DNA of 64,000 bases from assembly GCA_965204535.1 (NCBI GenBank), contig CBDBEV010000001.1, positions 864,001 through 928,000 on the forward strand. The letters run 5' to 3'. The position numbers and the translations under genes are program-made. This document shows positions 36,051 to 39,195 of the stretch, piece after piece (within the stretch, counting starts at the first letter, position 1; every line of letters starts with the position of its first letter). The notes under the pieces were generated by a model. It was not told where the DNA came from. It did not search any database and saw only the letters and a program-made list of their open reading frames with translations. The DNA comes from a bacterium (GTDB taxonomy: Bacteria > UBA8248).

Positions 36051-36821
36051 ATGGCGGATGAAAATCCGGAAACGGCGGACCTCCTCAAAGAGCTCTCCAG
36101 CGGCATCTCTTCGATTCTCAAGAGCCAGGAAGAACTCTCGGATAAACTGGATGCGCTCGAAGCGCGCGTCCGGCGCCTGGAAGAACGAACCCGCTCCGCA
36201 GAATCCGCCCCCGCGGCGGGTGTCGGCGAGGAGGACGAGTACGACTACCATGTCCTCCTCCACTCCCGCTTGTATACGATAGGAGACGTCGAAGGCCGCA
36301 CCGCGCGCATGGAGAGCGTGCGCCGCTGCCTGGCCCAGCGGGATCTGTCCCGCGTGAGGACGCGCTATCACACCGGCAGCGGCGACAGGGAGGTGGCCTA
36401 TTCCTACCGTCTTGCCGGAGATGGCGCCGCCGAAGCCCCCTGGACGCCCCTGGAATACCGGATAGAAAAGGGTGCGGGGGCAGATTATTCCGCGCATTTG
36501 CCCCTGCCCGGGCCGATTCGCGCGGGCGCGCGCTTCGAGCTTCGCCACGAGATCGTTCTGCACGATTCGTTCACGACGCGAAACGAGTGGGTCACTCTCG
36601 TGGTGGAATACCCCACCGACGAGTTTCACCTGGAGGTGCTCATCCCCCCCGGCCGCAAGCTGGTGGGCGCGCGGCGCGAGGAGTCCCAGGGGGCGTCGAA
36701 CAGCTTCAACAAACGCCGCGTCTATCCCCGCCTTCTGAACGAAACCGGCCAGACCCGCCTGGAGTGGCGCGAAACCGGACCCGTCACCGGCAGGGCCTAT
36801 ACGCTTTTCTGGGATTGGTAG
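36051..36821 (+). CDS. Hypothetical protein (N-terminal coiled coil, beta-rich C-terminus ending YTLFWDW)
   Basis: Host-like codon usage; synonymous-only divergence from its duplicated 3' end supports this frame. Confidence 0.8.
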   Translation: MADENPETADLLKELSSGISSILKSQEELSDKLDALEARVRRLEERTRSAESAPAAGVGEEDEYDYHVLLHSRLYTIGDVEGRTARMESVRRCLAQRDLSRVRTRYHTGSGDREVAYSYRLAGDGAAEAPWTPLEYRIEKGAGADYSAHLPLPGPIRAGARFELRHEIVLHDSFTTRNEWVTLVVEYPTDEFHLEVLIPPGRKLVGARREESQGASNSFNKRRVYPRLLNETGQTRLEWRETGPVTGRAYTLFWDW

Positions 36822-36827
36822 GGGAGG
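36735..36827 (+). repeat. Direct repeat copy 1 (last 29 codons of 36051-36821)
   Basis: Matches 39102-39195; 6 substitutions in the 87 coding nt. Confidence 0.95.
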
Positions 36828-37173
36828 CCGAGCGGCAGGTTTTTCGCCGTCCTTTTGCGGCGGTAGAGTCAATCGTATATACTGATGGCCATATAACTCT
36901 CTGGGGACCCGCCCGCTGAATCGACACTGTCCGCCTTGACGCATGGCGCGAATGCCCGAGACCCCATTCGGGCGCAGACGAGTCGATTCTGTCTTTTCTC
37001 GAACGCCTGTATCGTTGTGGTTGCGATCGGATGAGCGGAAAACTGCTGAGTGGATATGTAACTGAACTCTCGGATCCTCGTAACGAAGATTCGATGGACG
37101 TCGCATCCCGGTGGACGGGAGTCGTACTCGATATGGTCGTGCAATAACCAGGATACGGAAATTTGGTGATCCC

Positions 37174-38493
37174 GTGACGACTTTAGACGTCAAAACTCAT
37201 AACGGAAGCGTTTTTCGGGACCCGGCGTTCATGTCGAACCGGGATGTTCCGATCCACCGCTGGATTCCCTGGATCGCGGGATACTCCAAGCACTTTGTCG
37301 AGGATGCGCTCACGCGCTACACTTCGGGTCCCAGCGTCGTCCTCGATCCGTTTGCCGGCGTCGGGACGACCCTCGTCGAGGCCGATCTGGCTGGGCATGA
37401 GGCTGTCGGCTTTGAGATAAATCCCTACGCTGCATTCGCGGCGCAAGCGAAGTTGAAGGCTCACAGGCTCGACCCGGATTACCTCCGAAGCACCGTCAGT
37501 CGCTTCACGACGTTCATGGAAGAGGGCGTGCGGAGCGGGAGGAAGCCACAGACGAACCCTCCGGCCGCTTTCCGCACGCGCGCGCCTTTTTACAGTCCCA
37601 AGGTCGAGCAAAAGGTTTTGACGGCGCTGGACTTCATTGTCGGCGAGGAGGCGCGAATCGGCGATATCTATCGTTTGGCGTTTGCAGCGACGATGGTCAG
37701 CTACTCGAACTACTCTTACGAACCGAGCCTGGGTCGCAAGGCCGCCGTCGGAAGACCCGACGTAGAAGACCACGACGTAGCCGGGGCGATGGGAGACAAG
37801 GTGCTCCAAATGGTGGAAGACGCTATTTGGTATCGAGAGATCCGCGATACGCGAGAACGCGAGGACGGACGAATTATCGAGAAGTCGTTCTTCGATGGTT
37901 ATACGAATCTCGAAGCCGGGAGCGTAGACCTCCTCGTTACCTCCCCGCCATACTTGAACAACTACCACTACAACCGGAATACCCGTCCACATCTGTACTG
38001 GCTGGGTTTTTGTTCATCCCCGCGCGACATGAAACATCTGGAAGAACTCAACTTCGGTACCTACTGGCAGAACGCGCGCGATCAAGAGCACGTCGCGCTC
38101 GATTCGTCCATTGAGGACGAAGAAATTCGGCAGGCGCTCGCCGAAGTGCGGAGTCGGAATCCCGACAAGGGAATTTATGGAGGCAGCGGTTGGGCCAATT
38201 ATGCGGCGCGTTATTTCAACGACTGCGCGCGTTTCGCCGACGGGGCGGCCTGGTGCCTGCGGCCCGGCGCGACCGCCCTGGTGGTGATCGGCAATTCCAT
38301 CCTGCAGGGCGTTCCGATCCCGACGGATCAATTCCTTGCCAGAATCGCGGAATCGCGCGGCTTCGAGATTGTGGACATCCATGTTCCCCGACAAGCGAGG
38401 GTCGGCAACAGCATCATCAACTCGAGCGTCCGCGCCGGGAAGACGAACGGCCGCGCGCTTTACGAGTCCATCGTGGAGTTGAGGCGCGCGTAA
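37174..38493 (+). CDS. DNA methyltransferase, N4-cytosine type (alpha motif order)
   Basis: Motif I VLDPFAGVGTT precedes motif IV VTSPPY; probable GTG start at 37174. Confidence 0.88.
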   Translation: MTTLDVKTHNGSVFRDPAFMSNRDVPIHRWIPWIAGYSKHFVEDALTRYTSGPSVVLDPFAGVGTTLVEADLAGHEAVGFEINPYAAFAAQAKLKAHRLDPDYLRSTVSRFTTFMEEGVRSGRKPQTNPPAAFRTRAPFYSPKVEQKVLTALDFIVGEEARIGDIYRLAFAATMVSYSNYSYEPSLGRKAAVGRPDVEDHDVAGAMGDKVLQMVEDAIWYREIRDTREREDGRIIEKSFFDGYTNLEAGSVDLLVTSPPYLNNYHYNRNTRPHLYWLGFCSSPRDMKHLEELNFGTYWQNARDQEHVALDSSIEDEEIRQALAEVRSRNPDKGIYGGSGWANYAARYFNDCARFADGAAWCLRPGATALVVIGNSILQGVPIPTDQFLARIAESRGFEIVDIHVPRQARVGNSIINSSVRAGKTNGRALYESIVELRRA

Positions 38494-39074
38494 TGCCGGA
38501 GCTTTGGGATCCGCTTACTTACGACAATCTCATGGCCGGTACCGTCGCGCACTTTGAAACACAAGAGCGAATATCATTAGACGATCTCGCGGGAGTCCAA
38601 GGGCCGGGCATCTACGCGCTCTATTATGAAGGCGCGATGGCCGAGTACCGGCCCATTGCGGATGGGAGGCGGCCCATCTACGCCGGCAAGGCGATTCCCA
38701 AGGGTTCGAGAACAGGTGGCGAACCGGACCTTGAGCATCCGGCTTTGCGGAGCAGGATTCGCCAACATGCACGCTCCATCGATCAAGTGGATAATCTCTC
38801 GCTCGAAGATTTCACGTGTCGGATACTGGCGATCGTTCCCGTCTGGATCGTTTTCGCCGAGCAGGCGCTCATCAAGCGGTACAGGCCCGTATGGAACAGT
38901 TGCCTGGACGGATTCGGAAAGCACGATCAAGGCAAAATGCGAAGTGCGACGGAACGAAGCTGGTGGGATACCCTTCATCCCGGAAGGCCCTGGACGGCCG
39001 GGGAAACACAGGTCAAGACGGTCGCCGAAGCGAGCTTGCGGGTCAGGGATTTTTTGAAAGAGGTGGATGGGTAG
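38493..39074 (+). CDS. Eco29kI-family (GIY-YIG) restriction endonuclease
   Basis: GIYALYY...PIYAGKA, L.SRIRQH..SI, AEQALI...PVWN..LDGFG.HD.G..R, WDTLHPGRPW; TAATG coupling to MTase. Confidence 0.9.
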   Translation: MPELWDPLTYDNLMAGTVAHFETQERISLDDLAGVQGPGIYALYYEGAMAEYRPIADGRRPIYAGKAIPKGSRTGGEPDLEHPALRSRIRQHARSIDQVDNLSLEDFTCRILAIVPVWIVFAEQALIKRYRPVWNSCLDGFGKHDQGKMRSATERSWWDTLHPGRPWTAGETQVKTVAEASLRVRDFLKEVDG

Positions 39075-39101
39075 ACGCCCGCCCTGCGCCATCTCTGTTT
39101 T

Positions 39102-39195
39102 TTGAACGAAACCGGCCAGACCCGCCTGGAATGGCGCGAAACCGGACCCGTCACCGGACGGGCGTATACGCTGTTCTGGGATTGGTAGGGGGAGG
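39102..39195 (+). repeat. Direct repeat copy 2 (orphan 3' end of upstream gene)
   Basis: Encodes the same LNETGQTRLEWRETGPVTGRAYTLFWDW* without a start. Confidence 0.95.

Follow-up and report, generated by a model that had tools for sequence, protein, structure and literature searches.

In a 64-kb window, the whole stretch of DNA analysed here, we identify a restriction-modification (R-M) gene pair lying between two copies of the 3' end of a core gene that we call gA. The pair and its repeat occupy the following positions.

36051..36821, + strand: gA, a 256-residue family-core gene, characterised by homologue search in the family, AlphaFold and Foldseek
36733..36824, + strand: left copy of the repeat, the present gA 3' end (codons 229-256, the stop codon and GGG)
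36825..37173, + strand: non-coding leader of the R-M unit, also found behind the gA end in genomes G008, G014, G017 and G006 at 71-83% identity
37174..38493, + strand: alpha-class methyltransferase (FAGVG motif I, then TSPPY; open reading frame (ORF) open from 37111)
38493..39074, + strand: Eco29kI-family GIY-YIG restriction endonuclease (PF09517, E 7e-48)
39075..39101, + strand: junction spacer, with 39075-39084 as in unduplicated alleles, a 9-mer of the leader of the downstream core gene c1 at 39085-39093, and then 8 nucleotides (nt)
39100..39191, + strand: right copy of the repeat, an orphan gA tail (39102-39188) without start or promoter

Two alleles of one gene end around a restriction-modification pair

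Compared codon by codon, the 28 sense codons and TAG at 36735-36821 reappear at 39102-39188, offset by 2367 nt, with exactly six substitutions (CTG/TTG, GAG/GAA, GGC/GGA, AGG/CGG, GCC/GCG and CTT/CTG), all six silent, which bears out a sequence-only reading made earlier of this window. BLAST widens the repeat to 92 bp at 93.5% identity (36733-36824 and 39100-39191) and finds two copies of it in the whole 4.56-Mb genome. As 61 of the 261 possible single changes are silent, six of six would be silent by chance with P = 1.6e-4, or 2.8e-4 with transition bias, and each of the six right-copy codons is present in 1-13 of 24 intact gA orthologues. Because all six occur in intact orthologues, the two copies are, judged by their codons, diverged working alleles of the gA end and not one fresh identical duplication; a model of a copy identical at birth followed by neutral decay gives P about 0.003-0.005. 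The right copy is likely the displaced earlier end of gA. The repeat itself is without product. A promoter and terminator scan returned 3 and 3 sites against 2.0 and 5.1 expected, and found neither at the right copy. The right copy lies in frame after the nuclease TAG, and we rejected a read-through fusion of the two as a function, this being a 1-in-3 coincidence and the spacer not being conserved in relatives (that of G006 is different and decayed).

The host gene was found in 41 of the 42 family genomes and was missing from all 16 outside genomes compared; it has no Pfam match above cut-off and no NCBIfam match. Its homologues carry the source labels Nitrospinae, Nitrospinota or Tectomicrobia, and the sequencing runs containing this stretch are mostly sponge metagenomes. 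From its AlphaFold model (pLDDT 87.7), gA is predicted to combine an N-terminal coiled coil with a beta-sandwich resembling the non-catalytic N-terminal domain of M1 aminopeptidases, a fold assignment made by Foldseek alone (E about 1e-8, TMq 0.45 against IRAP/ERAP). Because the duplicated 28 residues form the last two strands of the model (235-242 and 248-255), an insertion at the gA end would have to restore them.

The sequence-only reading had also stated that no integrase lies between the repeat copies, and this stands: the interval holds only the N6/N4 methylase and Eco29kI-family nuclease genes, which are coupled by a TAATG overlap. The methylase start, GTG at 37174, agrees with the start used in G006. 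The nuclease matches the R.Eco29kI structures 3MX4/3NIC (E 1e-28), and its active-site Tyr, Arg, His, Glu and Asn align with PF09517 and R.Eco29kI, with E where the crystallised chains, which we take to be the E142Q mutant, have Q. The methylase is 46% identical over 92% to the methylase of Deinococcus radiodurans plasmid pCP1, taken from the available part of PMC6712171 to be M.DraR1. Excerpts of two papers describe M.DraR1 as an N4-methylcytosine (m4C) enzyme of CCGCGG whose partner nuclease is also Eco29kI-like (PMC6712171, PMC10855626). By this analogy, our methylase is likely of the N4-cytosine type with a predicted CCGCGG specificity, and the cargo likely restricts DNA unmethylated at that site; genomic CCGCGG shows mild avoidance (observed/expected 0.64, 14th most avoided of 64 palindromes). 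DraI (M.DraR1/R.DraR1) and Eco29kI, as far as those excerpts describe them, thus share with our pair an alpha-class SPPY methylase and an Eco29kI-like GIY-YIG nuclease; the genes are adjacent and overlapping here, whereas they lie ten ORFs apart in D. radiodurans. The pairing is described in the excerpted account as rare for CCGCGG systems (PMC10855626), and our cargo would be a further example of it if the m4C specificity holds. The nuclease occurs in 7 of the 42 family genomes, all in this genus, six times directly behind the gA end and once as a weak match elsewhere, and is broken in G006, G008 and G002. An R-M unit with one address is not behaving like a freely inserting element.

The scar in relatives and across the genome

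Downstream of the repeat, three further features define the locus.

39321..40101, + strand: second cassette, a DUF5678-like ORF (39321-39560) and a retropepsin-like aspartyl protease (39574-40101)
57297..57342, + strand: second copy of the DUF5678 3' end (39522-39567), inside an eroded REP/RAYT remnant that closes the variable region
57462..57776, + strand: c1, a conserved 104-residue gene, the right-hand core flank of the variable gA-c1 interval

The usual order in relatives is rlmN, gA, variable DNA, c1, variable DNA, thioesterase and acnA. Both gA and c1 are conserved family genes without a Pfam assignment that are adjacent in basal genomes, and gA runs straight into c1 in G001, G007, G010, G015 and G019. 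The components of our locus occur separately in its relatives. One allele, A, consists of gA, the R-M unit and c1 without a repeat (G008, G017 and sequencing runs X2 and X4); the other, B, consists of gA followed by DUF5678, with or without the protease (G011, G012, G022 and G003, and probably contig 7 of X2, by overlap arithmetic only). This genome and X1 carry the union of the two. In relatives the DUF5678/protease cassette directly follows an intact gA, and an empty site of the kind that the sequence-only reading proposed to look for exists in G011, G012, G022 and G003, where gA runs into the DUF5678 leader; in G011 and G012 it matches 39100-39567 at 94-95%.

Four of the 23 genus genomes have extra gA 3' ends, namely G014 (38 nt), G006 (53 and 191 nt), G003 (169 nt) and the present genome (92 nt); the G003 copies differ at 2 of 169 nt, and those of G006 are identical over their first 131 nt. 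In G003, X1 and X2 another gA tail, with its start near 36648-36654, lies behind the DUF5678/protease cassette, and because X1 and X2 have the same protease-to-gA junction as G003, such junctions persist and are common to several lineages. The protease gene of G014 is fused to a gA tail through a shared CGGCAGG microhomology, and in G006 the R-M unit is closed by the decayed 5' end of c1, which joins gA near codon 190 and where microhomology is plausible. A related trace is seen in our junction spacer, in which 39085-39093 (TGCGCCATC) equals the 9 nt preceding the start of c1 (57453-57461), a match spotted after the fact with a chance expectation of 2.5e-4; X2 and X4 match up to 39084 and then enter the c1 leader, and G006 has its decayed c1 5' end at the same position. 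Different defence cargo occupies the gA address elsewhere, including type IIG/I R-M (G006, G009), C5-methylase/Vsr/Z1 (G021) and HNH (G022) genes. The G003 arrangement is inferred across two contigs; the G006 locus lies on two contigs (L034 and L035, that is C2 and C4; 16% contamination) and is counted once; G011 is covered for 3.8 kb of the interval, and G003, G005, G017, G018, G021 and G024 end at or near contig ends.

Our data indicate that gA is one of many genes in this genome with such a scar. With 90-nt probes from the start, the middle and the end of 3231 predicted ORFs, we found orphan 3'-end echoes at 23 of them, 27 in all, lying downstream in the same orientation, and none upstream; mid-gene probes gave 2 matches at 1 ORF (Fisher P 3e-6 for 3' end against middle), and 6 echoes of gene starts lay upstream. 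These figures come from a uniform recount; 6 of the 27 rows of an earlier list were whole paralogues and were left out before the interval and substitution analyses. The median echo is 97 bp, and some are stacked two deep. The host genes are unrelated, among them a lactonase-like hydrolase, znuA, a PduO-type adenosyltransferase, methylmalonyl-CoA mutase, an MFS transporter and a PDH-E1-like gene, and the cargo comprises YafQ/RelB, AbiEii, an Eco57I-like methylase, DUF5678, a candidate defence gene and metabolic genes, with the same scar also around a solute-binding protein and a zinc-uptake cluster (examples at C1:531779-537357, C2:197947-206393, C2:668164-670300, C2:2571842-2573765 and C2:2729855-2737579; L048-L054). 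None of 22 echo intervals has a tyrosine-recombinase or integrase domain match. The pduO, MFS and MBL loci were compared in 23 genomes each, and at these loci the cargo is missing from some relatives, whose intact gene continues into the post-orphan sequence; four genomes share one echo start at pduO. Silent and replacement changes number 20 and 4 in echoes of at least 93% identity, and 68 and 80 in older ones (P 7e-4, or 0.013 when this locus is left out), which argues that the orphan tail is not maintained. The sequence-only statement that both gA copies evolved under coding selection holds only for their past as alleles; older orphan tails in the genome carry indels and amino-acid changes.

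Several observations concern the surroundings. Between rlmN and gA (35849-35910) lies an AT-rich dispersed repeat of 40-60 bp with roughly 60 genome copies, a 43-bp pair of which brackets an amine-oxidase gene in G003. In G021 the gA promoter and 5' half are duplicated over 558 bp at 99.3% (L032:385-942 and 10560-11114), the mirror image of the 3' echoes, with a 9.6-kb C5-methylase/Vsr/Z1/DUF4420 island between the copies. The module of DUF5678-like ORF and retropepsin-like protease recurs in this genome at C2:2732381-2732923 and C2:1150213-1155588, once between gene-tail echoes. The direct repeat of the DUF5678 3' end (39522-39567 and 57297-57342; 46 bp, 96%) lies on either side of a 17.7-kb island that carries MORN and ankyrin/Sel1 proteins, AbiEi/AbiEii, IS110, a DDE transposase, a mutator fragment, a SLOG protein and a partial ssb. 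The REP/RAYT remnant at its end also occurs in G002, G013, G018, G020 and G021; it includes, at 57160-57270, a Y1 (RAYT/IS200-like) transposase-end remnant with a REP-like palindrome, and full Y1 transposase ORFs flanked by the palindrome are present in G014 and G018 (L033, L042). A ParA-like ATPase and a 178-residue ORF (57933-59344) form a further optional cassette between c1 and the thioesterase, both ORFs being present in G016 and the smaller in G011. The cargo behind the pduO-type gene (L050:2256-2978) matches the PADLOC candidate defence model PDC-M57B (E 2e-90).

Origin of the repeat and direction of entry

We propose, giving it an even chance, that the repeat arose by homologous recombination at the gA end combined with one illegitimate junction, the incoming DNA entering on the left and displacing the old tail. 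DNA from a relative carrying a gA end and the R-M pair would have recombined homologously into the 3' part of gA, and its other end would have been joined by illegitimate recombination inside the resident gene's tail. The gene would thereby be restored and the cargo added, with the old tail and the downstream DUF5678/protease cassette pushed 2.4 kb away. Once formed, the junction would likely spread by ordinary allelic exchange and could be lost by pop-out recombination between the copies, which would favour the survival of short repeats, and the orphan tail would decay with time. The locus holds two alleles with no recombinase nearby, the component alleles occur apart in relatives, echo lengths vary and the scar recurs at many genes; RecA-type anchoring, the illegitimate second end and the direction are what we infer. 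Integration of a circular intermediate through a single crossover would yield the same product and is indistinguishable from this route.

Several points weigh against the proposal. No microhomology is demonstrable at the junction of this genome itself, and 8 spacer nt are not accounted for. Intact comEC and dprA genes are present, but both also match in 10-11 of 14 control genomes and so are no proof of competence. Fourfold-site divergence over the last 64 gA codons (0.14-0.18) is below that of most of gA, but not below that of parts of acnA or c1; a rank-correlation test of a recombination anchor was uninformative, and the synonymous-divergence signal is no more than suggestive. Homology-facilitated illegitimate recombination is rare, according to the available part of PMC5361080. 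The echo scan covers one genome, without an outside baseline and with 3 other loci compared in relatives, and its ORFs come from our own hexamer caller, so that some of the 23 may be insertion sequences (IS) or spurious. Two further points concern direction: the left and right copies do not differ significantly in their distance to sister genomes (Poisson P 0.09-0.19), and G014 has an intact R-M unit to the right of eroded DNA, which fits right-side entry.

On the direction of entry, the evidence leans modestly, and short of significance, towards the left copy as the incoming one. The right copy differs from those of the sisters G016 and G002 at 3 and 4 of 87 positions, in line with a 3-5% background, and the left copy at 5 and 6 of 87, with 3-5 differences from G012, G011 and G014. 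The nearest neighbours of the left-copy stretch are accordingly G012/G011/G014, and those of the rest of gA are G002/G016. Left-side entry fits the arrangement of G006 and G003, where it is the right copy that adjoins the ancestral flank. G011 and G012 could equally have received their gA end from this lineage. Sister (G002/G016) left/right distances at pduO (14/12 and 9/7), MFS (2/4 and 6/8) and MBL (7/10 and 8/6) reveal no consistent polarity across these three loci. The sequence-only reading held that a diverged incoming allele had replaced the resident one and that the right copy should match the resident lineage: the two diverged alleles are confirmed, and the arrival direction that it assumed is modestly favoured, with the right copy nearer the sister genomes by a difference that is not significant.

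The strongest competitor, which we consider clearly less probable, keeps the same integrase-free mechanism and reverses its direction. Here the R-M unit would already have been resident, and the right copy would have arrived on a fragment with the DUF5678/protease block, with its homologous anchor on the c1 side and its illegitimate join immediately behind the nuclease gene. A mirror-image 'empty' state, gA and R-M without the right copy, does occur in the close relatives X2, X4, G008 and G017, with gA-R-M-c1 matching to 39084 in X2 and X4; the sister G002 retains a nuclease fragment behind gA, which makes the R-M unit an old resident; and the DUF5678 block is 95-96% identical to G011/G012 as against 82-86% for the gA 5' part and rlmN. 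Such a polarity is seen in G014. Against this, the right copy stands at background distance from the sisters while the left copy switches neighbours, the DUF5678 block is also found at 97-99% in the near relatives X1, X2, X3 and X20 and so need not be foreign, and the oldest remnants in this genome lie at the c1 end.

An unlikely account has the two copies identical at birth, possibly after restriction cleavage, with the gA end and R-M unit later swapped for another strain's allele. The locus does show the features published for such insertions in the available part of PMC2853133 (R and M inside, less than 20 kb, repeat over 30 bp, no mobility genes), the G003 copies and the first 131 nt of the G006 copies are identical or nearly so, and in X1 the same junction lies beside nuclease variants 8% diverged, which argues that later swapping occurs. 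Without such swapping, however, the six silent differences carry the low probability given above; no CCGCGG site lies in the repeat or cassette, 3 of 5 R-M carriers lack an echo after the nuclease, and the same scar surrounds YafQ/RelB, AbiEii, the solute-binding protein and the zinc-uptake cluster. The link to R-M insertion drawn in the sequence-only reading is weak, as the same scar brackets non-R-M cargo at many loci, and R-M as the driver of the insertion event is not shown.

Quite improbable, in our assessment, is the remnant of a site-specific integrative element, or one mobilised in trans, that used the gA end as attB as e14 does in icd and has since lost its integrase. The outcome would be that of icd/icdC, as excerpted from PMC13626634, and the 42 tyrosine-recombinase (PF00589) matches in the genome might act in trans. 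The nearest of these is 251 kb away, though, and we found no serine recombinase in the genome (95.7% complete), no tRNA within the 64-kb window, no Rfam match in 33000-60500, no recombinase in the gA-c1 ORFs scanned and no integrase in a scan of 51 ORFs that covered the locus here and in relatives; IS genes lie more than 10 kb downstream, outside the repeat pair. Echo starts vary among relatives (38-191 nt), where later erosion might blur a fixed site, and the 23 targets are unrelated, with no junction motif common to the 12 genes inspected. The gA-end pattern has no match in viral contigs and one in a metagenome contig (L047). Neither a circle nor a direct empty-site joint, nor a right-copy-to-cassette-start joint, is listed in the contigs of 7 of the 20 runs compared; contigs drop rare forms, so absence is not shown, and the uncovered stretches of X3 and X20 were given no weight.

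That the repeat is an assembly chimera of two strains or the tail of a separate paralogue, the two refutations named in the sequence-only reading, is hardly credible: the assembly is metagenomic with 5.3% contamination and both component alleles occur separately in one sample (X2), but single Logan unitigs cover 35727-39563 (X17) and 36727-41000 (X19) with 0 differences, albeit possibly from the source sample of the assembly, X1, a run of another study, bridges the nuclease-to-right-copy junction in two variants, and no gA paralogue is found in the 4.56-Mb genome beside the two repeat copies.

Known insertion scars and a likely route of gene gain

The locus is of a known kind, long target duplication or C-terminal displacement; the comparisons below draw on excerpts of the papers cited. 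Furuta, Abe and Kobayashi (2010) described R-M insertion with long target duplication (PMC2853133), in which, as here, R and M alone lie between long direct repeats spanning a stop codon, the target gene is intact, mobility genes are absent, relatives have an empty site and the repeats can be imperfect (44/46). Our locus agrees in its 2367-bp period, a 92-bp repeat unique to its two copies, the lack of an integrase, transposase or tRNA target, and the empty site in G011 and G012. Unlike those cases, our copies are demonstrably orthologous alleles, and the R-M unit keeps one genus-wide address, often without a repeat, while the scar also surrounds non-R-M cargo. Insertion caused by the R-M unit itself was those authors' hypothesis, with the mechanism left open and release and reinsertion undemonstrated as of that account (PMC2853133).

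The sequential C-terminal displacement at type VI secretion system (T6SS) and rhs genes, ascribed to homology-facilitated illegitimate recombination (Kirchberger et al. 2017, PMC5361080), resembles our locus in its upstream homologous anchor, illegitimate far end, orphan 3' tips downstream, stacks and later spread by ordinary recombination. There, however, the incoming tip is a different toxin domain, whereas here the peptide encoded by the tip is unchanged, what is gained is the cargo that follows, and the targets are ordinary core genes. Minimal mobile elements and integrase-free hotspots likewise hold variable cargo, including R-M, between conserved flanks that recombine, but the excerpts describe clean double-crossover replacement and not the additive stacking with duplicated flank ends seen here (PMC3787668, PMC5635113).

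A further likeness comes from phage integration. No cognate integrase lies beside an attachment site here, and the echoes measure 38, 53, 92, 169 and 191 nt. The e14 prophage has its own integrase. It is 15 kb long with a fixed site, whereas no integrase is near our locus and echo lengths vary; it too leaves an intact gene with a downstream C-terminal fragment bearing largely synonymous changes (icdC), and its excision yields a chimeric icd allele (PMC13626634).

Taken singly, the locus is an ordinary insertion scar beside a defence hotspot, and its value is comparative: one genus displays the two parental alleles together with their union, with eroded forms and with junctions that several lineages share, and R-M cargo is plainly not the only kind that the scar surrounds. 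This population snapshot and the genome-wide signature are what our analysis adds; no published account of such a gene-tail signature was found in the open literature searched. The 27 downstream against 0 upstream echoes form a simple, testable signature that is applicable to all genomes and comparable with competence. Gene-tail displacement is likely a routine way of gaining genes in this sponge-associated bacterium. More tentatively, and with rather less confidence than we place in the proposal for gA itself, integrase-free gene-end displacement may be the main route by which defence and toxin-antitoxin cassettes are acquired across the genus, with the last 50-250 bp of any core gene as a landing site and the orphan tail as a second recombination arm for additive insertion into the empty sites of other species. 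If this is true, the dozens of dated tails that a single genome holds would directly document homology-facilitated illegitimate recombination as it occurs in nature.

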